Notes: generated by a model not told the origin, from the letters alone. A stretch of DNA of 64,000 nucleotides from a virus (IMGVR_UViG_3300025151_000024:1-64000), one strand, 5' to 3'; shown: positions 2-62,772, counted from the stretch's first letter. A program made the numbers and translations.

Positions 2-682
2 CACAAGAATACTGTTTATGAAAGTGGTTTGAAGAAGGATTTTGATGGTGAAATCACCACAGGAAGATTCCCTGCGAATGTGATTATGGATAAGGAAGCG
101 GGCGAGATTCTTGACGAGCAAACAGGCGAATTGAGTGCCGGACACGCACCAAAGTTAAGCAAAGGCAACCCATTTTCAGGTGCTAATGATACTGAACGCC
201 AAGAAATACATTATGGAACAGGCGGTGCATCACGATTCTTCTATTGTGCCAAGCCATCACAGGCTGAGAGGCATGGTGGTTTAGAATCTTTAGAGGATAA
301 GGAAAAATATGCCGATTTTGGTTTGAGGAATAGAATACAAGATGGAGTTATTACTAATGATAGAACCAATAACGCTGCATACACATCAAAGAACAATCAT
401 CCAACGGTAAAGCCCATCAGTCTGATGACCTATTTGTGTCGTCTTGTGACTCCTAAGAATGGAACAGTACTTGACCCATTTATGGGAAGTGGCTCAACTG
501 GAATAGCGGCTTGTATGGAAAACTTCGATTTCATTGGGATAGACATGGAAGAAGAATATGTCGAAATCGCTCGTCATCGAATTACACATTGGAGTGATTA
601 CAAACTTGATGATTTAGAGGTCGGAGAAGAAACAGATTTCAAACCTGTTAGATTCAGAAATCAACCAGCAACGTATTGGTAA
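2..682 (+). CDS. DNA methyltransferase (N6-adenine/N4-cytosine family), 5'-truncated
   Basis: HPTVKP motif and SAM-binding VLDPFMGSGSTG; RFFYCAK typical of phage N6_N4 MTases; frame open back to the window edge. Confidence 0.92.
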   Translation, partial: HKNTVYESGLKKDFDGEITTGRFPANVIMDKEAGEILDEQTGELSAGHAPKLSKGNPFSGANDTERQEIHYGTGGASRFFYCAKPSQAERHGGLESLEDKEKYADFGLRNRIQDGVITNDRTNNAAYTSKNNHPTVKPISLMTYLCRLVTPKNGTVLDPFMGSGSTGIAACMENFDFIGIDMEEEYVEIARHRITHWSDYKLDDLEVGEETDFKPVRFRNQPATYW

Positions 683-696
683 AAGGAGATAGAAAA

Positions 697-933
697 ATGG
701 AAAGAGAAATTAGGAACATTGTATGTCGTTTGGAACTTACAAGAAAGGACAAAGAATTGGCTTTGATTGAGGCATCATGTTATCGAACAATGGAGAACAA
801 ATATGCTTACGCATCGAAGATAACGAAGGCCGATGTTGAGGCTAACTGCATAACCGATGACGAAATCCAAGAGGGATTGGAAATGGTCGGTGAGTGGGGA
901 GTATGGGTTTCCGGTGTCGAGAGGGGTGAGTGA
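697..933 (+). CDS. Hypothetical protein
   Basis: ATG at 697 after AAGGAG; fills the operon gap. Confidence 0.65.
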   Translation: MEREIRNIVCRLELTRKDKELALIEASCYRTMENKYAYASKITKADVEANCITDDEIQEGLEMVGEWGVWVSGVERGE

Positions 934-936
934 ATA

Positions 937-1206
937 ATGGGAGAAGAAAACATTTGGCGAAGTCCTAGTATGGAAGGAAAGTGGATGAATGGTAAGGGAG
1001 ATGTGCTGGCTAGGCGCATTGACTACTATCAGAAGATTTGGTTAGACCTACGCATAATCAATGTGCAAGATGGAAAACACCAACCCACCCGACATGGAGT
1101 TAGATTAACAGTAGAACAATTGAAGGAGATTCTACCTAGACTCGTTGAGTTTGTAAACGAAGTCGAAGATGAGTTAGAACAAGAAGAGCGGAGTAGAGAG
1201 GAATGA
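937..1206 (+). CDS. PC4-like ssDNA-binding protein
   Basis: WLDLR...PTRHGVRLTVEQL resembles the PC4 signature (DIR...PT.KG..L...Q). Confidence 0.75.
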   Translation: MGEENIWRSPSMEGKWMNGKGDVLARRIDYYQKIWLDLRIINVQDGKHQPTRHGVRLTVEQLKEILPRLVEFVNEVEDELEQEERSREE

Positions 1207-1640
1207 AAATTTGGCACATTGAATGTTCTGAGTGTGGTTTTAGGCAACGTGCTATTCAAGACCCAAAACCGAAAAGAAAATGCCCCAACAGACACACCAC
1301 TTGTACTAATTCACATTTAGATTTAGTTCATGAAATTGAGCATCTAAACCAATGGTACGACTTTAGTAGGGAAGAGAAAATTGATGACGGTTTCCATTTT
1401 GGGAAATATACTAATTACACAATTGTACCTGTTTGGGGTCATGTTGATGGTCATCTTGTAATGATTGGTAAAAGGAAGCGATACCATTTACAGGAATGCT
1501 GCGGTAAAAACCGATTCAATTCTCGTTGTCCAGTATGTAATTATAACTGGAAGTCTGAAAAGCAAATTCCTATAACTTTCCCTCCTACAAAAATAGATGA
1601 AGATGGTTATGAAGGATACACAATAAGCGGGGAAGAATAA
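1203..1640 (+). CDS. Cys-rich (Zn-ribbon) hypothetical protein
   Basis: CSEC, CPNRH, CC and CPVC motifs; ATGA overlap with the upstream gene. Confidence 0.65.
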   Translation: MKIWHIECSECGFRQRAIQDPKPKRKCPNRHTTCTNSHLDLVHEIEHLNQWYDFSREEKIDDGFHFGKYTNYTIVPVWGHVDGHLVMIGKRKRYHLQECCGKNRFNSRCPVCNYNWKSEKQIPITFPPTKIDEDGYEGYTISGEE

Positions 1641-1756
1641 TGAAATTTATGGCAACAATCGGAAAAGAGAAAAGAGGAAAAACTGGATTTGTTTATGATA
1701 CTCTTAATAACGGAAAAGAGGAACTTTGGGTTTTAGATTTCGATGGTGAGGAATAA
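1640..1756 (+). CDS. 38-aa microprotein, truncated paralogue of the ATPase at 6297-7298
   Basis: Read by hand: MKFMATIGKEKRGKTGFVYDTLNNGKEELWVLDFDGEE; TAATG overlaps at both ends; GxxxxGKT and LWVLDFDG match the ATPase. Confidence 0.7.
   Translation: MKFMATIGKEKRGKTGFVYDTLNNGKEELWVLDFDGEE
1709..1748 (+). repeat. Dispersed 40-bp repeat, second copy at 6552-6591
   Basis: aacggaaaagaggaactttgggttttagatttcgatggtg vs aacggaaaagaccaactttggattctagatttcgatggtg; 36/40 identical by manual alignment. Confidence 0.85.
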
Positions 1757-3168
1757 TGAAATTCTCGTTAGCAGCGAGATTACATGAATCTCTCCTTCTT
1801 GGTAATGATAAGCGACAAGTACTATCATCAATTGATAATTACAAAGATGCACTAGAATTGTATCACTTGTTTTGCCCGCAAAGAAAAATTATTACCAAGG
1901 GCGATTTACATAATTTAGCAGCCGAAGAATTCGGTGTTTTCGTAGATGTTATCGCTGATGTGGTGGGTGAGCGTGAAACATGGCGAGTTTTAGCCCTAGA
2001 AAGCAACGTAAGCGGCTCTAGAGACTGGAAAGTATCTGAGGCTATCCAACACGCCGAGAGCCTCAAAGATGGCGCAATCGGCTTACTTGAAATTACGAGC
2101 CTTCTCGATGAAATCGAAGCCCGTTTGTTTTGGAGATTCATTATCGGTGAAAAAGTAATGAGAGAAACCGCTTTCTTGAATGCCGTAAGTCAGAATACTT
2201 CTATTCAAAGTCGAATTCTGAAACAACACATCGCTGTAAAAGACCCCGAAGAAATACTAGAGGCGTTATTCAATGACCCTGAATCGTTAGGTGCAGGTGT
2301 GTTATGGAGTGAAGAACCATCACTAGCATTAACACCACGCAGGTTTATTCCACATCTATCACAAAATGGCCCTACCAAAATTAAGAAATACAACGGTGGT
2401 TTTTATCAACGAATACTAGCCAAAGGTGCAACCAATATGTTGCATATCACAAATGAGCCTACTGGTTCTCGTTTCGTATGGCGGGATAGAACTGGTCGGT
2501 TAATACCGAAAGGTCTAGCGCCTAAGTTAGATTGGTCTATCAAAGGGCCAGTTATCTTAGAGGCGCTTGGTGAAAATAATACTATTCACGTTTATGATGC
2601 GATATACCCAAGATATCCTACATTAACATTACAAGAAAGGTTAGAGAAATTCCAATCTAGTCTTACAGATGAACCGATAGTGGTTCATTTCCCTACTGAA
2701 ATTGAACACTGGAGTGGTTTAGTTACAGTATTAGATGACGAGGAAATAATACGCTTCCCGAATTTTTCAGCATACGAACCATTTAGTGAAGGGGGGTACA
2801 CTTTGATGACATCTATGGCTCGCAAGATATTCAGATTACAACAGGTGAAACAAAACGAAGGTCGTTTATTTATTCGTGTAGCAGCACTTGATGGTCTAGA
2901 TGATTACGTCATCGTGGGTGAAATGGAAGCCTTCGATGATTTAACACCACAGTTGTTATTTTCTATCAAGAGAAGAACTGGTTTCATTCCAAAGGATACT
3001 TGGGAAAACGTGTCCGATACCGATTGTATAGCGGTAGAGGTGGTGACCCCACGAATAACTTATGAACCAATCAACATCGAAAGCCCTCTCCTTGTCGCTG
3101 TTCGTGACGACTTGGGGATATCTGATATCACACAAATAGTAGATTTAATGTTCGGAGATGATGAATAG
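1756..3168 (+). CDS. ATP-dependent DNA ligase-like protein, degenerate (no KxDG motif)
   Basis: EARLFWRFIIG (DNA-binding-domain-like), RDRTG, VILEA, HVYDAI, TLQERLE and C-terminal PLLVAVRDD follow ligase domain order; catalytic motif I not recognisable. Confidence 0.65.
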   Translation: MKFSLAARLHESLLLGNDKRQVLSSIDNYKDALELYHLFCPQRKIITKGDLHNLAAEEFGVFVDVIADVVGERETWRVLALESNVSGSRDWKVSEAIQHAESLKDGAIGLLEITSLLDEIEARLFWRFIIGEKVMRETAFLNAVSQNTSIQSRILKQHIAVKDPEEILEALFNDPESLGAGVLWSEEPSLALTPRRFIPHLSQNGPTKIKKYNGGFYQRILAKGATNMLHITNEPTGSRFVWRDRTGRLIPKGLAPKLDWSIKGPVILEALGENNTIHVYDAIYPRYPTLTLQERLEKFQSSLTDEPIVVHFPTEIEHWSGLVTVLDDEEIIRFPNFSAYEPFSEGGYTLMTSMARKIFRLQQVKQNEGRLFIRVAALDGLDDYVIVGEMEAFDDLTPQLLFSIKRRTGFIPKDTWENVSDTDCIAVEVVTPRITYEPINIESPLLVAVRDDLGISDITQIVDLMFGDDE

Positions 3169-3600
3169 ATGGATGATTGGTCATTTGCACTTGGGTTCAT
3201 CATTAGCGACTTGAAATTTCACGCTAGTATGACTAGGAGTACTCAAACCCCGACTGGTTTTAGGCTACGAAAATACATTTGGTGGAGAACTCTATTCGCA
3301 AAGCCTAGAGATGGATTATTAGAATTGGTTGAAGAGCAATTAGAGACAGTAGGTATTTCACTCAAGGAAGAATACCACAACAAAAAAGAAATTCAGATGT
3401 GGTTTTCTTTGATAGAAAAAGCCAATTTAGAAAATAAGTTATCCGACCAATTAGGAATTAAACAACTGAAATTTGTATTAGACAATCCCTTCCCAAAAAC
3501 ATTCGATAGTATAGTAGAATGGGCAAAAGAATTCGATAATATTGAGTTGGGGTATTTAAAGGAAACAATAAATGAGGTTGAAGCACATGGCATGGAATGA
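3169..3600 (+). CDS. Single-motif LAGLIDADG-like protein (degenerate)
   Basis: N-terminal FALGFIISDLKF resembles YLAGFxDGDGSF, followed by a beta-hairpin-like segment. Confidence 0.45.
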   Translation: MDDWSFALGFIISDLKFHASMTRSTQTPTGFRLRKYIWWRTLFAKPRDGLLELVEEQLETVGISLKEEYHNKKEIQMWFSLIEKANLENKLSDQLGIKQLKFVLDNPFPKTFDSIVEWAKEFDNIELGYLKETINEVEAHGME

Positions 3601-4549
3601 AATTACACGACCAATCCACCTAGGTCAACTAGTTGGACAGAAGGAATTTGTTGACGAGGCTGGGCTTTGGGAAGCCAAACAAGAGTGGCCTGATGCTATT
3701 CTCCTTCAAGGACCACCCGGAGTAGGGAAAACTACTGCCGGAAGAATCATTGCTCGTTCCGCGCTTGGCGACTTTTTTGACCCAGTGAATTTTGTTGAAA
3801 CAAACGCTTCTGATGATAGAGGTCTTGAATTTGTTAGAACTGAATTGCGAACCTTAGCATCAAGTAGACCTCTTGGGGCAAAAAGAAGAGTGGTTTTACT
3901 TGACGAAGCCGATGGTTTGACATCAGCCGCCCAAGACGCTGCTCGACAGATTATTGAAAACCACGCTGGTAATTGTTTATTCATTCTCACGGCAAACAAT
4001 GTTGAGAAGATTAGACCAGCAATAAAGAGCAGATGTTCGATATACAATTTCAAACCACTTTCACCACAAGAAGGAGCAATACACCTTTCCAATGTATGTA
4101 AAACAGTCAATGTCTCACAAGATATCCTAGAGGACTGGCAACAGCATTTCCCTAGACTAATACATATGTTAGGTGGAGATTTGCGCTCTTGTGTTAATGT
4201 GTTGGAAAGCACACCTCAAGAAATAGGAGCATTAAAAAAAAAGGTTTCTGAATTAGATGTCATAACCGATGCGGCTATTGCCAGCACAGATAACGAGTGG
4301 ATGGAGATGAGAATCGGTTTCCATAAAGCGTTAGGATTAGGACGTGACCGCTTCTTTATCATGCGGTCTTTTTACAACAACATTTCAACATTCTTTGATA
4401 TTTCAGACGAAGATGGTAACAGCAAACTGTGGAGTGTTCTTGCAGTTTACGGAGATATGATGAGTCGAATCTATGAATGGCCGGACAGCGATGCCGCATT
4501 CATGGATTGTTTCGTAGCCCAACTTAGGCGGGAGATGATGATAAAATGA
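3587..4549 (+). CDS. rfcS: Replication factor C (clamp loader) small subunit
   Basis: WNEITRP (cf. W.EKYRP), Walker A GPPGVGKT, NASDDRG, Walker B LLDEAD, SRC motif IKSRC. Confidence 0.93.
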   Translation: MAWNEITRPIHLGQLVGQKEFVDEAGLWEAKQEWPDAILLQGPPGVGKTTAGRIIARSALGDFFDPVNFVETNASDDRGLEFVRTELRTLASSRPLGAKRRVVLLDEADGLTSAAQDAARQIIENHAGNCLFILTANNVEKIRPAIKSRCSIYNFKPLSPQEGAIHLSNVCKTVNVSQDILEDWQQHFPRLIHMLGGDLRSCVNVLESTPQEIGALKKKVSELDVITDAAIASTDNEWMEMRIGFHKALGLGRDRFFIMRSFYNNISTFFDISDEDGNSKLWSVLAVYGDMMSRIYEWPDSDAAFMDCFVAQLRREMMIK

Positions 4550-5895
4550 CAGACGAATATGAATATGAACAAATGGAAGAAGAAGAAACGAAAGTAGCCG
4601 GTTTTGCTCGTGAGGGTGGCGGTAAAACGCTACCCGAAGGGGTAATGCTACGGCTGAAAATGCACAGCGAGAGAGTTGGAGAGAGCATAGAGAAGGTAGA
4701 GAAATTCTATCTTGATTCTATCCGAGACGAATATGGCTGTGAAGATTGGGCTGATGAAGATGAAGACCTACTTGTTGATTGGTCGGAACAAATCTTAGTA
4801 CAAACCCGAAGAGCAACAATGGGTGGCGGTGCTAACACTGTTACTTTTGTAGGTTGCTTTATCGGTGTAGATGGTACAAAGAGAGACCGCAGACAAAACA
4901 TGAGGAATCGTGCAGCGATTGATTTCACAAGAGACCCAAATGCCGCCATTGATGGTGGTAGGATTGGTGTTTACGAAAAGAATGGCGACACATGGAAGAT
5001 TACCACAGCAAACGGCTCTATTGACACAGTAGAGCCAGTAGATGAACCTCCTGTACTTGGATTCCTAGCAGACGGTCAATACATCTGTTTGGTGGGTTCA
5101 TCCACTGGTCGTCCAATGCCTTCTACTTTGATGGGTAGGCATTACTATTTCCTAGGTAATGAAGAAGATAAGTTTGAGCAAGATATCAAGATGTGGCGTG
5201 TTGATTGTGTAGGAGACGCTACTAATATCGAAGTTAAAATTGGTGAGCCATGTAAGATATTCGTTAGACCACCAAACGAAAATGCTCCTGATGCATACAA
5301 GGATATTCTTGGAATTTCCGCTGGTTTTGAGGATTCTATTGAATACACTTACGACTTCGTTGGTGAAGATGAGAAGAAGTTCCTTCACCCCGGTCGCTTC
5401 TTGGTGAACCCTGATATGCATCCTTTCTATGCACCTCTTGAGGATTTAGAAGAAGCATACGAATCAGGCTCTCGTACCTTTGAGATAAACGGAGAGCAAG
5501 GTAGGGCTGGTCCTATTGTAATCACTAAGGGTACAGTTACACGACTTTCCACTGAACCTAGAGAAACTGAGTATGACGAGTCCGGTAGAAATTACGTATT
5601 CAATCTAACATCGGTTGCTCTACAAAGTCAATACGGACAAAGTAACTCATCTGAGGTTGCTTGCTGGGTTAGTAGCGCTTGCCACGATAACTCAAAGCCG
5701 TTCATTGCTCGTGATGATGTATCCGAAATTGAATGGGCTGAAAAGTCAACTGTCTACGTAATCGGTAGAATCGGTATGTCTGTAAGAGATGGAGAAAGAA
5801 ATCCGAAACTCACTGTCTTTGGTGTCTATGCAGACCCAAGAAGAATCCGCCGTAGAGTAAGCGGTGGTAACACTGGACAGGAGCAGTTTAACTGA
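4546..5895 (+). CDS. Probable RPA/OB-fold ssDNA-binding protein
   Basis: Acidic, beta-rich 449-aa protein with OB-like segments (VITKGTV, VYVIGRI) inside the replication operon; positional inference. Confidence 0.45.
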   Translation: MTDEYEYEQMEEEETKVAGFAREGGGKTLPEGVMLRLKMHSERVGESIEKVEKFYLDSIRDEYGCEDWADEDEDLLVDWSEQILVQTRRATMGGGANTVTFVGCFIGVDGTKRDRRQNMRNRAAIDFTRDPNAAIDGGRIGVYEKNGDTWKITTANGSIDTVEPVDEPPVLGFLADGQYICLVGSSTGRPMPSTLMGRHYYFLGNEEDKFEQDIKMWRVDCVGDATNIEVKIGEPCKIFVRPPNENAPDAYKDILGISAGFEDSIEYTYDFVGEDEKKFLHPGRFLVNPDMHPFYAPLEDLEEAYESGSRTFEINGEQGRAGPIVITKGTVTRLSTEPRETEYDESGRNYVFNLTSVALQSQYGQSNSSEVACWVSSACHDNSKPFIARDDVSEIEWAEKSTVYVIGRIGMSVRDGERNPKLTVFGVYADPRRIRRRVSGGNTGQEQFN

Positions 5896-5906
5896 GGTGA
5901 AAAAGA

Positions 5907-6101
5907 ATGAGTGAAGAAAGAATAGTGAGACTAATTAGGAATGAATTGGTTAATGCCGTCAACCACATAACGAAAGCGATGATGGAATCGGGACGTGTTA
6001 ATTTGGATAGAAATCTAGCACTAGACCGTCTGAATGAGACGTTGAAAGATATGATGGGGACACAAGAAGCAATTCTACAGGAGATGAAGAAAAATGAGTA
6101 A
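5907..6101 (+). CDS. Small helical hypothetical protein
   Basis: GAGGTGA RBS; overlaps the next gene. Confidence 0.65.
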   Translation: MSEERIVRLIRNELVNAVNHITKAMMESGRVNLDRNLALDRLNETLKDMMGTQEAILQEMKKNE

Positions 6102-6297
6102 AACTAAGGTAGAATTAGAAGCAGAAAACGCAGCATTGAAAGCACAGGTAGAAAGAGTGGAGATGTTAGAGAAGCAGGTTGCTAGGCAACAATTACAATT
6201 ACAGTTGCTGGAACAATACGCCAACACAGTAATGGGTGCTGGGCAACAATTGATTTCTAACATTGAGGCTTTGAATAAAGCAAGTGGTGATGAGTGA
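6094..6297 (+). CDS. Small coiled-coil protein
   Basis: ELEAENAALKAQVE heptad pattern; coupled to neighbours. Confidence 0.65.
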   Translation: MSKTKVELEAENAALKAQVERVEMLEKQVARQQLQLQLLEQYANTVMGAGQQLISNIEALNKASGDE

Positions 6298-7298
6298 TGG
6301 CGGGTTTTGGCGCAGCGAAGCGCATTCAAGAAGATAGAGAAGAGAGCGGCGAGCCTCTACCTACTGCTGAGAATAAAACCACACCTGTTGTAAATAGCAA
6401 TGACCCATTCTCAGATTTGAGAAGCGAGTTACAATCACTTCACAAGAATCAACCGAAAACTACGGTTTTTGCTTTGATTGCTGGACATGAAAACACAGGA
6501 AAAACTGCGATTGTTTTAGATGCATTCGATAGGCATTGTAAAAATGATAGCAACGGAAAAGACCAACTTTGGATTCTAGATTTCGATGGTGGTGGGGTGG
6601 GTACTACAACCGCATTCCATTCAAACAACGATAGAATTAGATGTTGGAATCCTTGGGTAATGCAAACTGGAAACAGAACTGCATATGATTATCCGGGCAC
6701 TCACGACCGTGTTATGAATATCATGCAATTCGCTGTGGATACAGCCCGAAAGCAGAACGATGATGGTTATGATGGTGAAAGAATTTGGGGTCTTCTAGTA
6801 ACAGGGATAGACCTTTGGGATTCGATTGCGATTAACTGTATGAGAATCGAAGACCTAAATTTGGCTCGTGACGGTATCGAAGCGGCTGACTGGAACGTTA
6901 AGGTAGGCCATCAGTGGGATTGGGCGATACGCAAGACTAGATTCCATCAATTGACCGCTCTATCAAAGCAGTTAGTGTCAGCAGGTTGTCAGGTGTATTG
7001 GGAAACCCACTTACGAATGACAAACTATTCTTTCGGTAAAAACGAAGATGGTGCTAAGTGGCGACCTGATTGTGAGAAATCAACCAACAATTACGTGTAT
7101 CAAATTTTGATGTGCGAAAGAGTTGATACCTATGACGATGAACGGCGTGAAATTATCAAGAGCGAGTATACAGTCACCTTTGATAAGAGTAAAACTAATG
7201 CAGAACTACAGGGACAAAGAAGAACAATACTTGTTACAGAAACAGGAAAGCCAGCCCGATGGGTCGGTCTTCCTGAACTAAGTGATGGGAGTTTGTGA
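6297..7298 (+). CDS. RecA-fold P-loop ATPase (RadA/Sak4/AAA_24-like recombinase)
   Basis: Walker A GHENTGKT, ILDFDGG, degenerate Walker B (LLVTGID), VYWETH. Confidence 0.75.
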   Translation: MAGFGAAKRIQEDREESGEPLPTAENKTTPVVNSNDPFSDLRSELQSLHKNQPKTTVFALIAGHENTGKTAIVLDAFDRHCKNDSNGKDQLWILDFDGGGVGTTTAFHSNNDRIRCWNPWVMQTGNRTAYDYPGTHDRVMNIMQFAVDTARKQNDDGYDGERIWGLLVTGIDLWDSIAINCMRIEDLNLARDGIEAADWNVKVGHQWDWAIRKTRFHQLTALSKQLVSAGCQVYWETHLRMTNYSFGKNEDGAKWRPDCEKSTNNYVYQILMCERVDTYDDERREIIKSEYTVTFDKSKTNAELQGQRRTILVTETGKPARWVGLPELSDGSL

Positions 7299-7301
7299 GA
7301 T

Positions 7302-8054
7302 ATGACAGAAGTAGAGTTAGATAGAAAAGATTTCCTTCAATTCCTTTCTTCTTTTGGGGAAACTGAGGATTTGAAAATTGTAGCATCTAAGGATTCTATT
7401 TCAGCAGAAGTAGGGTTTTCCACACACTATTTGAAAAAATCAATGGCTGTTGAGGCTAACTCAATAAAAACTGAAGGTGAAATAGATATTTCAGATTTGA
7501 AAAAGTTGGTTTCTTTTTGCAAAAAGATAAGCAAAGATAGTATCTTGGTAAGGCAAATGGGGTCAGGTAAGACTTTGTATGTTAATGGTGGTAGCACAAA
7601 GTTACAACTTCCAACAAGTAATACTATTATTTCACATACAAAAACGCCGTTGATAAATAAATTAATTTCTGAGGCGAAAGATACTATGTGGTCTACTTGG
7701 ACTCCGCAGAAACTTGAGATATCCACACATGGTGATATATCTGCATCTGAGTTACTCGATATTGCTAAGATGAAAGATATTGTCGGGAAACACGGAATTA
7801 CAGTATCAGTAAATGCTGATGAGAGTGAATTTGCTGTTGCTATGGGTAAGAAACATACCCCTCGTATTTTCTCCACGTTAAGCGTATCGAATTCTCAAGG
7901 ACCAATGGGTACTGTAGAGAGTGATTTCGGGCATTGGTTTACTGATTGTCTTGGTATGCTTGAAGAAAGCGCTGCTACTTTTCACATGGGTGAATCATTA
8001 CCTTTGATTATTGAACAAGAAAATACACTATTGATAATAATCCAAGAAGCGTGA
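7302..8054 (+). CDS. Probable PCNA-like sliding clamp
   Basis: 250 aa (PCNA size), alternating alpha/beta pattern, C-terminal MGESLPLIIE resembles the PCNA end; directly upstream of PolB, with RFC in the same operon. Confidence 0.6.
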   Translation: MTEVELDRKDFLQFLSSFGETEDLKIVASKDSISAEVGFSTHYLKKSMAVEANSIKTEGEIDISDLKKLVSFCKKISKDSILVRQMGSGKTLYVNGGSTKLQLPTSNTIISHTKTPLINKLISEAKDTMWSTWTPQKLEISTHGDISASELLDIAKMKDIVGKHGITVSVNADESEFAVAMGKKHTPRIFSTLSVSNSQGPMGTVESDFGHWFTDCLGMLEESAATFHMGESLPLIIEQENTLLIIIQEA

Positions 8055-8058
8055 TTGG

Positions 8059-10536
8059 ATGATAGTGGATTACTTTACGCCTGAGTCTCGTGTATTCAAT
8101 ACACCTCGTGGCTCTCTTCGTATCGGAGAATGGAATTCAGATTCTGATAAACCATTCATCTATGAACGCACAAGAGACGCTGATGGCGTATTACATGAGC
8201 GGGTATTACAAGAGGGGGATGAAGACTACATATCTCCTTCTTGTTGGGTAGACGCAGCAATAACTGATGCTACCATACACAGAATAGAATCTAGATATCC
8301 GGGTGTAAGTATTGACAGAACAAAAACAGCAGTAGGAATAGATGGTGTACCGTTGATAAAACTGACAGCATCTCATCCTAACCATTTGTGGAATATCAAA
8401 GATGAGTACCCACATACATATGAAGCGGATTTAATCTATACAGACCAGTATTTGATACAAAACTATCCTGATGGTATCCCTGATTTCCATCCTCGTATTT
8501 GGTACTTCGATTTGGAGTGGGACCCCAAAGAGGATTTCACCACCGTAATGGCTGTTGTAGATAATCAAGCACCACACCCTGTGGTGTTCGCTTGGAAGCA
8601 AGATTTGATGAGTGAACATACAAAATGGATAGATAGGTATGGTGGGTATGAACTTAGATTATATCTAAACGAAGAATCAATGCATGAGGGATTCTTACAA
8701 TACCTTGACGAAAGAGACCCTGATATTCTTGTAGCACACGCCGGAAACTGGGCGGATATACCACATCTGTATAGAAGGCTGAAAGACCCGTCAAGATTGA
8801 GTCCGATTGGTGAAGTAATCGCTCCTAGAAAGGATACAGGGTACGATGAATCCGCTCAACCGATTAAGGGTAGGATAGTATTCGATAGTGCGGCTAGAGG
8901 GATTACAGGTAGTGGCTTTGAGGCGATATGGCAGAAGTCCGGTAGAGGGCAAATGTCTAGCCGTAGCCTTAACTGGGTGGCTCAAAGTTTAGACTTAGGA
9001 GAGAAACTAACAGATAGAATCGAAGGTATGACTGTACACAATGGATGGTATGATTACTTCGATGACTTCGTTGACTACTGTTTAGTGGATACAACCTTGC
9101 TAAGAGACATTGATGAGATGTTACACGCCGTTGAATTCCATGTAGCCATGATGAAACTATGTGGTGTTGGATTCCGTAGCACCTACAAAGTTACTAGATA
9201 CTTTAGGGGTCTAATTGGAAGAAGAACAGATTTGAAAGCACCATCGTCTAAAGCGCAGAATCGTGAAGAATTACAGGCGGCGTATATTCCTGACCCTATA
9301 CCGGGAAGACATGAAGGTGTAGCACTGGTAGACTACGCTTCTTTGTATCCGAATATTATACTGAGTCTGAATTTATCTTGGGAAACCAAAAAACAAAACG
9401 CCGGTAGTAATATTAAATCTCCCGGTAATGGAACTCACTGGTCACAAGACGAAGTGGGATTACTCCCAAGCGTTGTGAGTGAAATGCTCGCATTAAGAAA
9501 AGATTACAAAAAGAAAATGTACGAAGCGACAGATACTAATGAAAAATTAGGATATGATATGCTTCAAACAGCAACGAAAGTTGCAGTGAACGCCCTCTAC
9601 GGTATGGTATCTATGGGTAAAATAGGTGGTATGTGGTCTGATTTGGATATAGGCCGCACTATTACATACATGGGTAGAGAGAGCATCAAATTCCTACTTG
9701 CTGAAAGTGAAAGGCAAGGTTATCGCGGGTTGTATGGTCATACTGATTCCGCATTTATTCAAGTTCCATTCGATGAAGCAGAAAACCTAGCAGCACATCT
9801 AACTCAAGAATCTAGAAAACAACTGGATATGCCCTACATGGATGTAGAATTAGAAGCATACTTCGATTACTGGATTAGTGCTGAAACGAAAAATAGATAC
9901 TTTGGTATCAAGTCTTGGCCTGAGTCTGATAAAGGCAAAATGAAAGTTAGTGGTTTTGAAATCAAAGCATCTAACGCCGCACCAATCAGTAAAGAAACAC
10001 AAGGTGTTTTATTTGACTTAGTTGGTAAAGGCGCAGAAGAAGAAGAGGTTACTGCGGCTATACGCCCGATAGTAAAATCAATTCTAAATGGTGAAAGACC
10101 AATAAAAGATTTAAGCCCTTATGGTAGAATCAAGAAGAGTATGAATAACTACACAGCAAACGTTCCTATGCCTGTGAGGGCTGCTAAATACTACAATGAA
10201 AATATTGCAACTGATGACCCCTTTAGACCGGGAGATGGAGCACAATGGGTGTACATCAATGCAGTACCCGAAGGTTTACCCGATTCGGTATCATTTCCAA
10301 AAGAGAAGAAAAACGCAAGCGCTTCTCACTTTGTTGCTAAATCCGGTGAAACCAAAACATTCCCTGCTAACGTAGTGGCTTTCAGGGAAGAAGATGAAAT
10401 CAAAGACTTCTCAATTGACTATGATGTGGTCGTAGAAAAAATGGTGAAGGCCAAAATCCAACCAGTGTACAGTGTAATGGGTTGGGATATGGAAAAGGCC
10501 GCATCACCACAAGAACAACCGGCGGTGTATTGGTGA
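8059..10536 (+). CDS. polB: Family B DNA polymerase with 3'-5' exonuclease domain
   Basis: ExoI FDLEW, ExoIII YCLVD, motif A DYASLYP, motif B KVAVNALYG, motif C YGHTDS, KNRYFG, KVSGFE; no intein. Confidence 0.97.
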   Translation: MIVDYFTPESRVFNTPRGSLRIGEWNSDSDKPFIYERTRDADGVLHERVLQEGDEDYISPSCWVDAAITDATIHRIESRYPGVSIDRTKTAVGIDGVPLIKLTASHPNHLWNIKDEYPHTYEADLIYTDQYLIQNYPDGIPDFHPRIWYFDLEWDPKEDFTTVMAVVDNQAPHPVVFAWKQDLMSEHTKWIDRYGGYELRLYLNEESMHEGFLQYLDERDPDILVAHAGNWADIPHLYRRLKDPSRLSPIGEVIAPRKDTGYDESAQPIKGRIVFDSAARGITGSGFEAIWQKSGRGQMSSRSLNWVAQSLDLGEKLTDRIEGMTVHNGWYDYFDDFVDYCLVDTTLLRDIDEMLHAVEFHVAMMKLCGVGFRSTYKVTRYFRGLIGRRTDLKAPSSKAQNREELQAAYIPDPIPGRHEGVALVDYASLYPNIILSLNLSWETKKQNAGSNIKSPGNGTHWSQDEVGLLPSVVSEMLALRKDYKKKMYEATDTNEKLGYDMLQTATKVAVNALYGMVSMGKIGGMWSDLDIGRTITYMGRESIKFLLAESERQGYRGLYGHTDSAFIQVPFDEAENLAAHLTQESRKQLDMPYMDVELEAYFDYWISAETKNRYFGIKSWPESDKGKMKVSGFEIKASNAAPISKETQGVLFDLVGKGAEEEEVTAAIRPIVKSILNGERPIKDLSPYGRIKKSMNNYTANVPMPVRAAKYYNENIATDDPFRPGDGAQWVYINAVPEGLPDSVSFPKEKKNASASHFVAKSGETKTFPANVVAFREEDEIKDFSIDYDVVVEKMVKAKIQPVYSVMGWDMEKAASPQEQPAVYW

Positions 10537-10655
10537 TGGGTCATTACAGTAATTGCGCTGATTGCGGTAAATGCACTGCTGATAGTCAATGGTTAGTCCA
10601 AGGACTATGTACAGAATGTGGAGATAAATGGTACAAAAGCGAAATGAAATACTAA
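10536..10655 (+). CDS. 39-aa Zn-finger microprotein
   Basis: Read by hand: MGHYSNCADCGKCTADSQWLVQGLCTECGDKWYKSEMKY; TGATG overlap with the polB stop. Confidence 0.65.
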   Translation: MGHYSNCADCGKCTADSQWLVQGLCTECGDKWYKSEMKY

Positions 10656-10973: not shown

Positions 10974-11119
10974 AGAGATACAAGTGTCAAATTTGTAAAG
11001 AAATGAAACCTCGTACTAAAGGTCGCCATACGACTATTTGCGGTAAATGTATTCGATTAAGAAAAGAGGGGAAACACATGAGCGTCAAGAATTTTCCATA
11101 TCAAGGGGGTTTTTGGTGA
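10970..11119 (+). CDS. 49-aa Zn-finger microprotein
   Basis: MKRYKCQICKE...TICGKC...YQGGFW; coupled to both neighbours. Confidence 0.6.
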   Translation: MKRYKCQICKEMKPRTKGRHTTICGKCIRLRKEGKHMSVKNFPYQGGFW

Positions 11120-12066
11120 TGAGATGGAATCCTAATGGCGATGATAAGTTGGCTAAGGCTGACGATTATCCGTTTGAAGATATGAAAGAATCCTATGCGA
11201 AGAGTGACTACTCTTGGTCTCCTGACATGGAAGATAAAATTTTACGAGTTACGAAAAGTAGCAACGGTACATTTGATTGGTGTCCAAAACAATACTTTTT
11301 TCAATACATTATGAAACTAAAACAAGAAGAAAAGGACTACCATATTCGTGGGAACAATGTGCACGATATGACTGAATACTTTTGGAAAGAGGCGGTCAAT
11401 TACATAGATGATATTCTAGAGCAAATAGAGTCAGGTAATATGAACATGGCTCGCCAAATGCTACACGACATTATCCCAAAACCCCCATCCCCATATCTAT
11501 ATGGCGAAGATGAGCAAATCCAAACATGGGTTGATTGGCAATTCGATAGACTGGTAGCCACTAAAGGTATTGATTGGTTTCCAGTTGGGAACGAAGCCGA
11601 AGTACACGCTACTCGTATTGTAGAGGTTGATGGGACTCCAGTACCTATTCATATGCGGGGTTTTATTGACCGTATCTTTGAGGATGATAAAGGATACATC
11701 CTCATGGAATTGAAAACTGGAAAATGGAAGAAAGGAAAAACAGCAACTAAGTTAAGGGCTGAAATGCAATTTTACAAAATGATGCTTGAATGTAGTCAAC
11801 ACGGAGAATATCTCCCGATTACACATTGGGGTTGGGAATTTCCCGGCGGCAATATAAACAATGGTGATGCTGCTGCTTGGGAGTTTGAGTCAACTTCAGA
11901 TAGAAAGGCGAAGTATGCAGAAAGAACTGTTGAAAAGCGCCTGAAAAAATTAGTCAAGGCCCACCTTGACATGGATTTTCCTGCGGAAAGAAATGATTTC
12001 AAATGTGCGTGGTGTGATTTCATGCACATTTGCCCCGCATGGACACAACAGGAGTTGGAATTATGA
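11119..12066 (+). CDS. Cas4-like / RecB-family PD-(D/E)XK exonuclease with Fe-S cysteines
   Basis: CPKQY, RGFIDRI, ILMELKTG, QFY, CAWCDFMHICP; likely start ATG 11119 (TGATG overlap). Confidence 0.88.
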   Translation: MRWNPNGDDKLAKADDYPFEDMKESYAKSDYSWSPDMEDKILRVTKSSNGTFDWCPKQYFFQYIMKLKQEEKDYHIRGNNVHDMTEYFWKEAVNYIDDILEQIESGNMNMARQMLHDIIPKPPSPYLYGEDEQIQTWVDWQFDRLVATKGIDWFPVGNEAEVHATRIVEVDGTPVPIHMRGFIDRIFEDDKGYILMELKTGKWKKGKTATKLRAEMQFYKMMLECSQHGEYLPITHWGWEFPGGNINNGDAAAWEFESTSDRKAKYAERTVEKRLKKLVKAHLDMDFPAERNDFKCAWCDFMHICPAWTQQELEL

Positions 12067-12348: not shown

Positions 12349-13455
12349 ATGGCGTTCATCACGCTTGATTTCCCAAGAGAGGTATTGGAAATTGGGGCTG
12401 ATGGTGAAAAGGGTTATCGAAGATTAGTAAAAGATTGGAACGAACTAGAAAGATACTGGAAAGGGAAGAATGGAAGCGGTAACGTTTTCTTTACTGCTTA
12501 CGGTTATCGCGGTTTGACCCCGCCTAGAAACCATAGAGTAGATTACAATACACCGATTATACGTCACTTTGTTTGTGACTTTGATTGTAAGAATTTTAGA
12601 AAGAGAGGAGAAGATGTACCCTTTGAAGTGATGCATGAGCAAGTAAAAAGACTACATCTATTTCTTTCTGAAAAAGACTTACTGCATTACGTTTGGTTTA
12701 GTGGTGGGGGCTTCCATGTTTGGATACCACTCCAGCAGACTTTCACACCTAGTAATGGGTTTGACGTTGCTAGGGTAAAAGACGCTGGTAGAATTGTTCT
12801 TTCAAAGTGGCATAAAGAACTAGACTTGTTTTGTAATGACCCAACCGTGGCTTTTGATACCGCTGGTATGATTAGAATTCCTAATTCCTACAATAGCAAA
12901 AGAGGGTGTTGGAGTATACCAATGACCTCAGAAGTTTTACTCAATAGCACACACATGGATTTATTGGATAAAGCCCAAGAATCACAAGATGGATACATAC
13001 AGCATGGCTCTCAAGCATTAGAATTGGTTTTACCCGAAAGAAAAACCATCTTCAAATCTAAGAAGAGAGAAATTAGTGACTTACCTGATATGTCAATTGA
13101 CGGGTTTACAATTCTTCCATGCTTAGCGCAATCCGCTATGGGTGAAGGAAACCCACCTCACAGGGCTAGGTTGCATTTCGCCTCTTACTTAGCAAGTAGA
13201 CTACGGTGGTTTTTCCCACCTGATAGTGTGTCAAATGAAGAAAAGGCAAAGCACGTAGATTTCATTGTTGATGTAATCTCAAGGCAAGGTTGGGTGGATT
13301 ATGACTTATCTACTACTACTTTACAAGTCGAAAGTTTAGTTTTCGGTGGCTCTTCTAATAACGGATATAACGCAGGTATGTGTAGGACTATCATAACTGA
13401 TGGACTTTGCACTGGTAGATGCAAATTCTATGATGGGACGGCGGAGGATATCTGA
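12349..13455 (+). CDS. Archaeo-eukaryotic primase, PriS catalytic domain fused to a PriL-like Cys domain
   Basis: CDFD, FSGGGFH, MIRIPNS; C-terminal LPCL...PPHRARLHFASYL...CRT...C...C. Confidence 0.88.
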   Translation: MAFITLDFPREVLEIGADGEKGYRRLVKDWNELERYWKGKNGSGNVFFTAYGYRGLTPPRNHRVDYNTPIIRHFVCDFDCKNFRKRGEDVPFEVMHEQVKRLHLFLSEKDLLHYVWFSGGGFHVWIPLQQTFTPSNGFDVARVKDAGRIVLSKWHKELDLFCNDPTVAFDTAGMIRIPNSYNSKRGCWSIPMTSEVLLNSTHMDLLDKAQESQDGYIQHGSQALELVLPERKTIFKSKKREISDLPDMSIDGFTILPCLAQSAMGEGNPPHRARLHFASYLASRLRWFFPPDSVSNEEKAKHVDFIVDVISRQGWVDYDLSTTTLQVESLVFGGSSNNGYNAGMCRTIITDGLCTGRCKFYDGTAEDI

Positions 13456-13610
13456 TGGATGAATTACCCCTTAATTGCTTAGAATGCGGTATAAAACTAA
13501 ACAGAAGTGGTTTAAAGAGAAGGAAGAGATTGCACAAATTCACTGGTCTTTGTATGGATTGTAGGAATAGAAGGAGGAAAGAAAATGCCAAAGCCAAATC
13601 TAATAATTGA
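13455..13610 (+). CDS. 51-aa basic Zn-finger microprotein
   Basis: Read by hand: MDELPLNCLECGIKLNRSGLKRRKRLHKFTGLCMDCRNRRRKENAKAKSNN; TGATG overlap with the primase stop. Confidence 0.65.
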   Translation: MDELPLNCLECGIKLNRSGLKRRKRLHKFTGLCMDCRNRRRKENAKAKSNN

Positions 13611-15770: not shown

Positions 15771-16382
15771 ATGAGCGATATTCTTTCCTTAGATATTGAA
15801 ACCGCTAATTTCTCTTATGATATTGGTGGTTGGAATAATAGAACACTGTTTGAACCTAGTGTTATAGCAACTTGGGATGGTTCTGACGGTACTATTTTTT
15901 CCAAAGAAGACATTGAATTAGAAGGGGTAAACACATTACCACTTCACCCAAGAGATATAGGTGACCATTTGATTGATTTCATAAACAAAGGTGGTAAAAT
16001 TTTAGGCCATAATATATTGAAATTTGACCTACCAGTAATCAAAGATTCGCTTGATTGCTGGGCTGCGGGGGATGTTTTATCCAAACATTCTGAATCTATT
16101 ATAGACACTAAAGTAATTGTACAAAAGGCGGCTTTAAAACACCAAAGAGTCGCCACAGATTTGAATATGCTAGCCAGTCAAAACTTGAAAGCAGAAAAAA
16201 TGATGTCAAGTTTAGATGCGCCAGTTCAATGGCAAAACGGTAATTACAATGATGTTGCTGAGTATTGTCTTAAAGATGCACAATTGACTTATGATTTGTA
16301 TAAGCATATGCAAGATTATTCTTTCGTTAAATCACGCTCCCTTGAAACAGGAGAAATAGTAGAAATTGAAATTGAGTGGTAA
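15771..16382 (+). CDS. DEDD/DnaQ-like 3'-5' exonuclease (RNase H fold)
   Basis: LDIET, GHNILKFD, YCLKD. Confidence 0.88.
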   Translation: MSDILSLDIETANFSYDIGGWNNRTLFEPSVIATWDGSDGTIFSKEDIELEGVNTLPLHPRDIGDHLIDFINKGGKILGHNILKFDLPVIKDSLDCWAAGDVLSKHSESIIDTKVIVQKAALKHQRVATDLNMLASQNLKAEKMMSSLDAPVQWQNGNYNDVAEYCLKDAQLTYDLYKHMQDYSFVKSRSLETGEIVEIEIEW

Positions 16383-16384
16383 AC

Positions 16385-16561
16385 ATGAATCAAGAGGAAG
16401 AAATAAAATTAAAATTAGGATTGCACAGATTATTAACAGCGATTACTCAAGGAGCGGCTTTGAGTGATATACAGCGTATGGCTGCGGTTATTGCTAACCA
16501 AGTAGAGTGGCCTTATGCATCAGAAGAAACCATAATAGAAGATACAGGGGAAGAAGAATGA
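16385..16561 (+). CDS. Hypothetical small protein
   Basis: ATG 16385; ATGA overlap with the chaperonin. Confidence 0.6.
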   Translation: MNQEEEIKLKLGLHRLLTAITQGAALSDIQRMAAVIANQVEWPYASEETIIEDTGEEE

Positions 16562-18057
16562 ATCAAGAAGAAAAGAAAGCAGACGCTCAATCTATGAATA
16601 TTAGAGCAGCAAAAATAATTGTCGAAACTTGCCAGTCTACACTCGGCCCTATGGGTATGGATAAGATGATGGTAGATGGGGCAGGTAATGTCATTGTAAC
16701 TAATGACGGTGCAACTATTCTTCGTGAATTAGATGTCAGTCACCCCGGTGCTAAAATGATGGTAGAAGTAGCAAAGACACAGGAATCTTTGTGTTACGAT
16801 GGTACAACCAGCACAGTAGTTCTAGCGGGTCAGTTACTTGCTAACAGCGAAAGTCTGTTCAGTAAGGGGCTCCATCCCAATGTAGTTTGTAGAGGATACC
16901 ACGAAGCCGCAACTATGGCTACAAAATATCTTCAAAGTGAAGTAGCATTTACTGGGGATGAAGAAGTACTGAAAAATATAGCAAAAACCGCAATTACTGG
17001 TAAAACTTTGGAAAGTGCTACTGAAGTTGTGAGTCAAATCTGTGTAGATGCTGTAATGCAAGCAGGAGAAGCAGACAAGGTAAGAGTAGTCAGTTTACCC
17101 GGTGGTAGCATAGAAGAATCATTCCTTTTCAATGGTGTAATTCTTAGCAAAGATTTCGTATTAGATTTCGCCCACGAAAAAGAAATGAAGGTAGTTTTAA
17201 TTAATACTGGATTGGAGAATGAGAAAACAGAAGAAAATATCTCAATTCAAATGGGGGCAGACGAGTATTCTCAATTCAAACAATCAAGCAGTGATAGTCT
17301 TCTAGACAAGGCAAAGAAGATAGTTTCTATGCTAGATGGTAAAGGCGTTGTATTCGTAAGAGATGGAGTACACGATAGTATCTGTGCCTATCTAAAGAAA
17401 AACGACATTGGTGTTGTAAGGCGAGTGCCTGAAAGTATGATGAAGGCTCTTAGCAGCGCACTAGAGTTACCTGTGGCTCAGACTGTAAACGACATAGAAA
17501 ATGTAACTGACATGGAACTTGTAAAGCAGAAGCATAACGATGTCTACTATCTCTTTGTTACTGGAAATGTCGAGAGCGACCAATCAACTCTAGTTCTTCG
17601 TGGTGCTACTCAATCAACACTTGATGAAGTGGAAAGAGGATTCGATGATGCACTGGGTGTAGTTGGTATGGTAAAAGACGAAAATAGTGTAGTGTATGGA
17701 GGAGGCTCTAGTTTTGTTGCTATGGCTTCACATCTACGCAATCATGCCGCTAAGATAGGGGGAAGGGCACAAATGGCAATAGAAGCCTTTGCAGACGCTC
17801 TAGAGGTTATTCCTGCTACCATAGCGGAGAATGCTGGGCATGACCCACTAGATACTGTTCTAGCGATGAGGACAAAAGTGTTAGAAGGCGATTTAACACA
17901 TGGACCTGATGTAACCGAAGGTGGTATTGTTTCAATGAAAGAAAATAATATTGTAGAACCTTCTAAATTGATTAAACAAGCAGTGCTTAGTGCAACAGAA
18001 GTAACTACTGCAATTTTGAGAATTGATGATATAGTTAGTAGAAGGCCGGTGGAGTAA
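16558..18057 (+). CDS. Group II chaperonin (thermosome subunit)
   Basis: STLGPMGMDKMM, TNDGATIL, (Y)DGTTS, LRGAT...DEVERGFDDA, YGGG, AENAG, ILRIDD; likely start ATG 16558. Confidence 0.96.
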   Translation: MNQEEKKADAQSMNIRAAKIIVETCQSTLGPMGMDKMMVDGAGNVIVTNDGATILRELDVSHPGAKMMVEVAKTQESLCYDGTTSTVVLAGQLLANSESLFSKGLHPNVVCRGYHEAATMATKYLQSEVAFTGDEEVLKNIAKTAITGKTLESATEVVSQICVDAVMQAGEADKVRVVSLPGGSIEESFLFNGVILSKDFVLDFAHEKEMKVVLINTGLENEKTEENISIQMGADEYSQFKQSSSDSLLDKAKKIVSMLDGKGVVFVRDGVHDSICAYLKKNDIGVVRRVPESMMKALSSALELPVAQTVNDIENVTDMELVKQKHNDVYYLFVTGNVESDQSTLVLRGATQSTLDEVERGFDDALGVVGMVKDENSVVYGGGSSFVAMASHLRNHAAKIGGRAQMAIEAFADALEVIPATIAENAGHDPLDTVLAMRTKVLEGDLTHGPDVTEGGIVSMKENNIVEPSKLIKQAVLSATEVTTAILRIDDIVSRRPVE

Positions 18058-18248
18058 TGGGGCGACTGATGGACAAGTTGAATGTAACTTGTCGAGCGTG
18101 TAGCCATAAGCACGTACCTCGTAGACTAAGTGCAAGATACCATGATGAATTTAAGAAAAGAATTCATCTTTGGCAATGTAAACAATGTGGGCATTTTTGG
18201 CAAGACTCTACTTTTAAGCCAAAGCGTTTATTTGGTGGGCGATGGTAG
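18057..18248 (+). CDS. TFS/TFIIS C-terminal Zn-ribbon-like microprotein
   Basis: CRAC-x9-SARYHDE-x9-CKQCGHFW vs TFS CxxC-x9-QTRxxDE-x7-CxxCGHxW. Confidence 0.6.
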   Translation: MGRLMDKLNVTCRACSHKHVPRRLSARYHDEFKKRIHLWQCKQCGHFWQDSTFKPKRLFGGRW

Positions 18249-61980: not shown

Positions 61981-61994
61981 ACACTACCCACCCT

Positions 61995-62423
61995 TCATTC
62001 AGTTGTTGGTGTTTTCCCACCACTGGTTATCTCGTGACTCTCTACTGGTCGGTCATGAGTATTAACACGAGCAGACAAAGCATCCATGTTATAGGATTCA
62101 GATGTTGCTCCCTTATTTGCCACATCTTCTGCATCTAAAGTGTAGTTGTTAGTGGTATAGTAAGCGTTTCTTGTTTGACCGCCGGATTCTGCGACAAAAG
62201 TTACATCTTGAGGCTCTGTGTTAAAAGAAGTAGAGAAATCAGGCTGAGCCTTAGCCATAGTGCCACAACCAGCCTTCATGCAACCCATTTTATTGACGGT
62301 TTCGCCACATTCAGGGCAAACTTTAGCCTTCTCTAAGGCGTCTGCTCTTTCTAATAATTGCTGTGCTTTTTGAAACATAGCAACTGCTTCGTCACTTACA
62401 TCAGTATATCTCGGTCTTACCAT
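61995..62423 (-). CDS. Hypothetical head-module protein
   Basis: CPEC...C...C; several xxKA motifs. Confidence 0.65.
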   Translation of the reverse strand: MVRPRYTDVSDEAVAMFQKAQQLLERADALEKAKVCPECGETVNKMGCMKAGCGTMAKAQPDFSTSFNTEPQDVTFVAESGGQTRNAYYTTNNYTLDAEDVANKGATSESYNMDALSARVNTHDRPVESHEITSGGKTPTTE

Positions 62424-62424
62424 A

Positions 62425-62763
62425 TCAGTACAACTCCAGCGGCGGTTTTACATTTTCAGCCATTTCGTGAATGTCTTCCCAACTCATTTCATGAATTTCT
62501 TCGTTGGTATAATTGTTCAAATCTGAGTTATCACTCTTCATTATAGCCTCATCATTTCGGAATGGGTCGGCTTCAACATCTTCCGAAAGTGGGGTATTTA
62601 CCCTAACAAAGCCTGATTTTCTTAGGATTGCAGTAGGGTTGTTGAGCATTTTCTTAAGTTGTTGATTTTCCCTTTGCACAGCCTTGATATCGTTATCCAT
62701 AGTTTCCATTTTGGAAATCAGAGCACTCATAAGTTGCTCTTCTGTGCTAGGTTCTTCACTCAT
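62425..62763 (-). CDS. Small scaffold-like coiled-coil protein
   Basis: C-terminal MSWEDIHEMA matches the protease-scaffold C-terminus MSWDEVHNLA. Confidence 0.65.
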   Translation of the reverse strand: MSEEPSTEEQLMSALISKMETMDNDIKAVQRENQQLKKMLNNPTAILRKSGFVRVNTPLSEDVEADPFRNDEAIMKSDNSDLNNYTNEEIHEMSWEDIHEMAENVKPPLELY

Positions 62764-62772
62764 TTACTTCAC

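Follow-up and report, generated by a model that had tools for sequence, protein, structure and literature searches.

The terminal peptides of family-B DNA polymerases, namely gp43 of T4 and RB69 and the archaeal enzymes, dock on the sliding clamps of their own systems. In T4 the tail binds the clamp gp45, as Shamoo and Steitz reportedly described in 1999, and gp55 and gp33 also carry a C-terminal peptide that binds gp45. Other clamps are bound by other peptides: the canonical PCNA-interacting peptide (PIP) box has the consensus Q-x-x-[LIM]-x-x-[FY]-[FYW], and the bacterial beta-clamp-binding consensus is of the QL[SD]LF type. Viral orphan methyltransferases usually protect from host restriction. 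Here we describe a DNA methyltransferase and a family-B DNA polymerase, encoded by the same virus, that end in the same peptide, QPAxYW. Both genes belong to a replication module at the left end of a stretch of 64,000 nucleotides, which we call the window: bases 1-64000 of the 81,434-base IMG/VR record IMGVR_UViG_3300025151_000024 (linear class, 76% complete). The window has 40% G+C. On balance, with slightly better than even confidence, we favor the reading that both tails dock on a clamp that the virus itself encodes (7302-8054), so that nascent DNA would be methylated while it is being copied.

In animals, the DNA methyltransferase DNMT1 is described as coupled to replication via a clamp-binding (PCNA) motif (PMC9690074). 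Our case is alike in that a DNA methyltransferase would be tied to replication by a clamp-binding motif. However, DNMT1 is an unrelated C5-cytosine maintenance enzyme that uses an internal, N-terminal PIP box and the cellular PCNA, whereas the enzyme in the window is a beta-class amino-methyltransferase with a C-terminal tail that we propose is suited to a virus-encoded clamp. Terminal clamp-docking peptides of polymerases and the link between DNMT1 and PCNA are already established. In the literature that we searched, with subscription journals outside its coverage, we found no DNA methyltransferase from viruses or prokaryotes that was described as having a clamp-docking tail. What appears to be new here is a putative private code, P-x-x-Y-W, along with a methyltransferase that follows its own lineage's variant of the code and a swap of tails between viruses with and without an apparent viral replisome.

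The features on which the argument depends are all on the plus strand:

2..682, + strand: DNA methyltransferase of family PF01555, cut at its 5' end (PF01555 E-value 9.3e-21, phrog_67 2e-33)
572..679, + strand: 36-residue C-terminal extension of the methyltransferase
662..682, + strand: QPATYW and stop, the polymerase-like terminal peptide of the methyltransferase
3572..4549, + strand: clamp-loader AAA+ ATPase, similar to the RFC small subunit or gp44 (phrog_168 'clamp loader of DNA polymerase' 3e-36, Pfam AAA 4.7e-14, DNA_pol3_delta2 2.6e-13)
7302..8054, + strand: probable sliding clamp of 250 amino acids, very divergent (gp45/PCNA-like)
8059..10536, + strand: family-B replicative DNA polymerase of 825 amino acids (PF00136 3e-35, PF03104 1.6e-5, phrog_262 7.9e-73)
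10516..10536, + strand: QPAVYW and stop, the lineage's form of the family terminal motif h-P-[KE]-x-Y-[WF], where h is hydrophobic

Frame 2-682 ends in ...FKPVRFRNQPATYW and frame 8059-10536 ends in ...SPQEQPAVYW (peptides are written up to the stop codon unless dots follow). The codons are AAT (659-661) CAA CCA GCA ACG TAT TGG TAA (680-682) for the methyltransferase and GAA (10513-10515) CAA CCG GCG GTG TAT TGG TGA (10534-10536) for the polymerase. This confirms the original prediction that the two proteins share a QPAxYW end, on extensions beyond the core or profile, and that the Pro codons (CCA and CCG) and Ala codons (GCA and GCG) differ synonymously. The spans given for the two peptides, 662-682 and 10516-10536, do encode QPATYW and QPAVYW with their stops, but the Asn and Glu that were counted as their first residues are encoded just upstream. 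Across the coding DNA of the hexapeptides, 14 of 18 bases are identical, with no similarity upstream. We rejected the idea that the methyltransferase tail was copied recently, as DNA, from the 3' end of the polymerase gene: only those 14 of 18 bases are identical and nothing beyond them. Among the 488 stop-to-stop frames of at least 40 amino acids in the window, only these two end in QPAxYW.

In the truncated methyltransferase, the match to PF01555 (75.2 bits against a cut-off of 26.7, by profile search) stops at residue 190 of 226, and the remaining 36 residues run from an acidic linker through a basic FKPVRFR stretch to the tail. The linker is conserved among relatives of the methyltransferase, while the last 10-12 residues differ. 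In the polymerase, PF00136 (122.3 bits, with the exonuclease family PF03104 at 24.9 bits; both exceed the cut-off of 23 and place the protein in family B) ends at residue 736 of 825, and phrog_262 ends at residue 816, so the tail, which is the last 6-9 residues, lies past the polymerase profile. Elsewhere in the window, a zinc-ribbon protein of 63 amino acids (18057-18248) ends in ...DSTFKPKRLFGGRW, whose FKP.R and terminal Trp resemble the ...TDFKPVRFRNQPATYW of the methyltransferase; its extension is lineage-specific, because most of its 54 orthologues end sooner (...DSAFK..).

By scanning IMG/VR, we found 59 loci with polymerases that are 43-99% identical to the window's, and the C-terminus could be read in 58 of them. 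Most (47) end at the motif [P/L]-[K/E/R/A]-x-[Y/F]-[W/F/I], another seven have the motif followed by 1-9 residues, and the remaining four end in VLREW, which is shorter by one residue. If we consider the 26 unique terminal tails, Tyr is found at position -2 in all 26, Pro at -5 in 24, Lys at -4 in 22, and Val, Met or Ile at -6 in 22; the last residue is Trp (18 tails), Phe (6) or Ile (2). Positions -13, -12, -8, -7 and -3 are free to vary, and fixed Tyr, Pro and aromatic positions amid freely varying residues are the signature of a short linear motif. The expectation that QPAxYW would be conserved in related polymerases holds for the existence of a family-wide terminal motif, but the consensus is hydrophobic-P-[K/E]-x-Y-[W/F], and the Gln and Ala are private to one lineage: Gln(-6) together with Ala(-4) occurs in 1 of the 26 unique tails, which is that of the window's own lineage. 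Hence, the methyltransferase tail matches the private polymerase variant of its own genome and not the family motif. This suggests either that the two tails have co-adapted to a single partner or that the tail was transferred and has since been kept by selection.

The QPATYW end is common to six cluster representatives of the methyltransferase (P0005, P0006, P0010, P0016, P0018 and P0019), which share a C-terminal module and have very different central regions. The central regions presumably recognize the target. P0005 is recorded on 35 contigs, of which the longest has 107,100 bases. In an alignment of P0018, P0005, P0006, P0010, P0014, P0019 and P0016 (alignment A3), methyltransferases of the window's type are mosaics, with nearly identical N- and C-terminal modules on either side of very different central regions rich in indels, as if target-recognition domains had been swapped.

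The 5' end of the window's methyltransferase is lost at the start of the record. Full-length relatives have 469-528 amino acids and also match PF01555 (precomputed Pfam results). In relatives P0004 and P0018, the motifs come in the order IV and then I, with TDPPYGL lying toward the N-terminus and DPFMGSGSTG toward the C-terminus; the cut protein retains only motif I. By family and by its (D/S)PPY and FxGxG S-adenosylmethionine-binding motifs, we classify it as a beta-class N6/N4 amino-methyltransferase, whose product is probably N6-methyladenine (DPPY type). We take it to be an orphan, that is, a stand-alone accessory enzyme: no partner nuclease is apparent in the small open reading frames upstream of the methyltransferase at locus L061, which were not searched against families. 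The family of viral beta-class enzymes is very large, as all of the 8000 candidates that we scored had E-values below 1e-10.

The proposed dock is the product of 7302-8054. Its length fits a two-domain clamp protomer, and it is encoded together with the polymerase and a clamp loader. A homologue adjoins the polymerase in 57 of the 59 loci, and the other two loci are cut by the end of the contig. We compared two profiles with known clamps: A1, from 29 of the 57 clamp-like open reading frames, and A2, with 63 rows (25 from A1 and 38 full-length sequences from the 78 hits of an exhaustive profile search). phrog_947, 'DNA polymerase processivity factor', matches 9 of the 29 homologues (best E-value 2e-5), over the N-terminal part only (the first ~110 profile positions). 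The six best matches of A2 in the PDB have non-significant E-values (0.12-0.88), and five of the six are sliding clamps, namely two beta clamps and three PCNAs from archaea. When A2 was aligned with a seven-row alignment of gp45 (using hhalign), the probability was 49.8% and the E-value was 1.7e-4, over 145 collinear columns. Among ten distant hits of the exhaustive search, one matched PCNA_C at 0.0094, which is below the cut-off, and one matched phrog_947 at 5e-4. The ESM Atlas gave one lead, at rank 25 (score 0.94): a cluster named 'sliding clamp family', in which 16% of the members have PF09116. Other searches returned no clamps: the single-sequence search of the PDB had as its best hit an unrelated protein (E-value 0.28), A1 against the PDB gave one unrelated match at 0.017, tblastn against 50,697 phage records gave no match, and a word-index search with A1 gave 13 hits, all of them family members without Pfam domains. 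Overall, the protein is weakly but consistently clamp-like, and we think that it is probably a sliding clamp, presumably in ring form. We also considered the 449-amino-acid protein encoded at 4546-5895 as the large subunit of the clamp loader; we rejected this because a weak homologue is present in a related record, G001, in which we found no clamp loader.

As in T4, the virus has its own polymerase, clamp (as predicted) and clamp loader, the tail is at the extreme C-terminus, and several clients may share the dock. The polymerase is 20% identical to T4 gp43 over 506 residues (E-value 4e-12). The segment GWDMEKAAS, just before PQEQPAVYW, aligns with GMDYEEKAS, just before the LDFLFG that ends gp43 (for this segment alone, the E-value is 16). 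Unlike in T4, the tail is P-x-x-Y-W instead of L-D-F-L-F-G, and these sequences are unrelated; also, the second client here would be a DNA methyltransferase and not a transcription factor. Like gp43, the window's enzyme is a virus-encoded family-B polymerase of the T4-like/B5 clade (PMC7544198).

The methyltransferases that are closest to the window's group are up to 75% identical and have the same linker, HW[SG][DE]Y..[DE][DE].E...KP. In records G001 and G002, these proteins end in STQM[NS]ISDWF, which includes a textbook PIP box (QMNISDWF). Further relatives end in PQKRITEWL, KQP[TS]L[FLM]D[FY].., QKSLFDW, or ..LEDWFV. (We considered whether the QPATYW and LEDWFV ends might be related by a frameshift and rejected this by eye, because the window's 3' end, read in either of its other frames, does not give it.) PIP-type tails are found in three records, G001 (30 kb), G002 (36 kb) and G052 (80.5 kb), and their canonical PIP boxes read QMNISDWF, QPSLLDFL.. 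and QIRLSDYW. In G052, two PF01555 enzymes lie side by side (59905-62912, locus L131), with the PIP-like ends KQPSLLDFLGGSE and GQIRLSDYW. G001, G002 and G052 are syntenic with the window and have in common with it both nucleases, the chaperonin, four module proteins and the capsid protein, which is 66% identical in G052. Where the window has the clamp candidate and the polymerase, these records have the homologue of 6294-7298 abutting the homologue of 11047-12066.

In these three records we found neither a polymerase, nor a clamp-like gene, nor a clamp loader. When we searched methyltransferase-bearing records for the polymerase, we found it in 0 of 5 and in 1 of 25, the one being G069, which is discussed below; a clamp-like gene was found in 0 of 27. 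(The polymerase and clamp searches took 25 of the 40 methyltransferase loci, and the clamp search also took L062 and L064.) The tail type of the methyltransferase changes in step with the replisome that each virus appears to encode. The simplest reading would be that viruses of the G001/G002/G052 type replicate on the host's PCNA and have methyltransferases tagged to suit, and that the window's virus has its own clamp and tags its methyltransferase with the peptide of its own polymerase. G002 also encodes a protein similar to pyrimidine-dimer glycosylases (12846-13481, locus L078; PF03013, 2.4e-5) that has ..SMPDWFDPEQQVVAA near its end; the DWF in it is reminiscent of the PIP-type tail on that record's methyltransferase.

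An unrelated lineage pairs its tails in a similar way. G069, a T4-like record with 33% G+C that we found through its methyltransferase, has a polymerase that ends in NAEKFFSF and a methyltransferase that ends in NNTNKFF; other members of the methyltransferase family end in NKFFSF, NKFW or KRKFW. G069 also encodes a 281-amino-acid protein of no known family that ends in ...QRNKNVWF (16082-16927, locus L133; also 19447-20292 of L125), and this protein may be a further client beside the polymerase with EKFFSF and the methyltransferase with NKFF. At the same position, phage methyltransferases have Q..LF-type ends such as QQNLF, QRGLF, QVSLFDEH and QLTLL. These bacteriophage enzymes are of the same family as the window's, and their ends resemble the beta-clamp motif, which is absent from the window.

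To quantify such tails across the family, we counted the unique 14-residue ends that fit one of three patterns: PIP-like, Q..LF-like, or an aromatic pair at the terminus. Of the 87 unique ends of the best methyltransferase homologues, 35 fit, as compared to 37 of 1391 for other viral proteins; the background contained truncated methyltransferases and a truncated polymerase, so its true level is below 37/1391. In a separate sample of metagenomes, 24 of 72 ends fit a pattern. Family members without the extension have no such end, and the class of tail changes even between close relatives. A scan of metagenomes for new pairs of a window-type methyltransferase and a polymerase found none in 80 loci, which were mostly short phage contigs; the only loci of the window's type were L171 (cut) and L172 (1.7 kb).

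If docking on the viral clamp is the correct reading, then the polymerase's terminal peptide would dock the polymerase onto the virus's own divergent clamp, and the methyltransferase, with the same peptide on a flexible extension of 36 residues, would use the same dock. Clamps that remain on the DNA at or behind the fork would recruit the methyltransferase, and nascent viral DNA would thereby be methylated during replication. The binding of the tails to the clamp, the identity of the 7302-8054 product as a ring clamp, and the biological purpose are the parts of this account that we infer.

Several results count against docking on a viral clamp. First, the terminal heptapeptides of the two proteins agree at 5 of 7 residues, and if we draw one random internal heptapeptide from every one of the 74 genes called in the record and score the best pair, then a match of at least 5/7 arises in 845 of 20,000 draws (4.2%). 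The match is only weakly significant by itself, so the case rests on the comparison with relatives. Second, the original prediction that 7302-8054 encodes the viral clamp is borne out by its place beside the polymerase and by its clamp-like profiles, but these profile matches are weak, there is no Pfam hit, and the hhalign probability for A1 with T4 gp45 alone is 0.4%. Third, QPAxYW is found on both proteins in one lineage only: it is seen in the window and in L001, whose polymerase is 99% identical to the window's, and L051 shows the polymerase only. In six whole related records that we searched, the tail is on the polymerase and on nothing else. The clamp-loader neighbor, the exonuclease and other module proteins have different conserved ends, so the tail is not a general tool-belt tag.

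Also on that side, PF01555 genes are present in only 2 of the 46 polymerase-bearing records searched (drawn from 50 of the 59 loci, those other than L001, L004, L015, L022, L042, L043, L044, L047 and L051), and the enzymes of these two are untagged. In both of them (G028, locus L086, 1480-2948; and the same in G030), a 238-amino-acid PF01555 enzyme between the clamp-like gene and the polymerase ends in ...RRWIDDY, without the extension or the tail. In the QPATYW group, conservation is about as high over the entire C-terminal module as it is in the tail. G001, G002 and G052 are 29%, 34% and 76% complete, so the absence of a polymerase elsewhere in these genomes is unproven. Finally, relatedness inflates the counts of tails, as related tails are not independent data points.

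Among the alternatives, the one that fares best, which we nevertheless consider unlikely, is that the shared tail binds some other common partner (the helicase, the primase, the single-stranded DNA-binding protein, the RadA-like ATPase, or the virus-encoded thermosome) or is an address tag (a signal for localization or turnover). The weakness of the clamp assignment leaves room for this, and the module has several further conserved C-terminal peptides. However, family-B polymerases of the T4 type and of archaea are known to dock on clamps by their tails, and the window's tail is positionally equivalent to T4's. The alternative tails within the same methyltransferase family are of the PIP-box and Q..LF types, and in G069 the methyltransferase tail is again that of the polymerase.

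It is less probable still that the host's PCNA is the dock for both tails, with QPAxYW as a degenerate PIP box. Like a PIP box, the tail is a short terminal peptide on a flexible extension, with an aromatic pair at positions 7-8. This pair is Tyr-Trp in both of the window's proteins; across the polymerase family, Tyr is found in 26 of 26 unique tails and Trp or Phe in 24 of 26. Close relatives of the methyltransferase have textbook forms (QMNISDWF, QKRITEWL, QPTLFDFL.. and QIRLSDYW), and the last of these, from G052, likewise has Tyr-Trp. Furthermore, the window's polymerase, as Q-E-Q-P-A-V-Y-W, has Gln at -8, which is position 1 of a PIP box. But the methyltransferase has Arg there instead of Gln, and Gln(-8) is found in just 1 of the 26 unique polymerase tails. 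At position 4, where Leu, Ile or Met is obligatory, there is Pro in 24 of the 26 tails and in both of the window's proteins. A clamp-like gene accompanies the polymerase in every relative whose contig is not cut (57 of 59 loci). Moreover, the canonical PIP box is found on the same methyltransferase where a viral clamp was not found, which argues against host PCNA, as the switch would be needless if PCNA were the partner in both.

We consider it similarly improbable that the resemblance is functionless (arising by chance, or by copying of a piece of the polymerase's 3' end that has been carried along with the conserved C-terminal module), because, even though the chance level is about 4%, the pair was seen in one lineage only, and the tail is no better conserved than the ~100 residues that precede it in the six QPATYW representatives, the DNA similarity ends at 18 bases and includes synonymous differences, the tail is on a dedicated extension past the catalytic core, relatives swap precisely this end for other clamp-type motifs, and the unrelated phage lineage of G069 repeats the pairing.

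The rest of the module is as follows, with the conserved ends of orthologues where we saw them:

between the methyltransferase and the clamp loader: small open reading frames and a 470-amino-acid protein (1756-3168; orthologues end Q-h-x-[DE]-h-h, 33 hits)
4546-5895: 449-amino-acid protein, after the clamp-loader ATPase (orthologues end ..GG[DN]TGxxQF[NDE], 51 hits)
6294-7298: 334-amino-acid protein, before the clamp candidate (orthologues end W.GLPEL.DG[TS]L, 55 hits)
downstream of the polymerase: PD-(D/E)XK nuclease and ERCC4 nuclease
15771-16382: exonuclease-like protein, after both nucleases (orthologues end ..E[IV][ED]W, 54 hits)
last in the module: thermosome-type chaperonin, identified via its homologue in G002

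Magroviruses are described as uncultured tailed viruses of Marine Group II archaea (PMC5434244; PMC7544198), and all 26 published magroviruses are said to encode a DNA polymerase, a sliding clamp and a clamp loader (Philosof et al. 2017, PMC5434244). The gene set of the window fits the published description, and on this basis we assign the replication module to a tailed virus of marine archaea that is magrovirus-like. Immediately after the polymerase is a Cys-rich microprotein of 39 amino acids (10536-10655; C..C..C ... C..C). Its ATG overlaps the polymerase's stop codon (TGATG), which suggests translational coupling. In the structural half of the genome, there is a single open reading frame of 5483 amino acids on the minus strand (28381-44832), with patchy homologues in G052.

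More broadly, prokaryotic viruses may run replication-coupled methylation by virus-private clamp-docking codes, in which the clamp and the polymerase of a given lineage would have a terminal peptide of their own in common, with mobile methyltransferases being re-tagged with the code of the resident replisome. We propose this tentatively, as we would give it a little less than even confidence. The methyltransferase would have the polymerase's tail where the virus has its own clamp, and a PIP box or a Q..LF motif where the host's clamp is used. If so, then the clamp with which a virus replicates could be predicted from the last few residues of its methyltransferase, and the type of tail would be a sequence rule for the use of own or host clamps in uncultured viruses. 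The tail swap is a natural experiment, in which one enzyme comes in two versions for what may be two clamps, and the peptides involved are short. If the docking on the viral clamp is true, then viral orphan methyltransferases would be passengers of the replisome and not free-diffusing enzymes, which would explain how new viral DNA could be protected from host restriction without a lag. It would also be a counterpart, in prokaryotic viruses and of independent origin, of the coupling of DNMT1 to PCNA.

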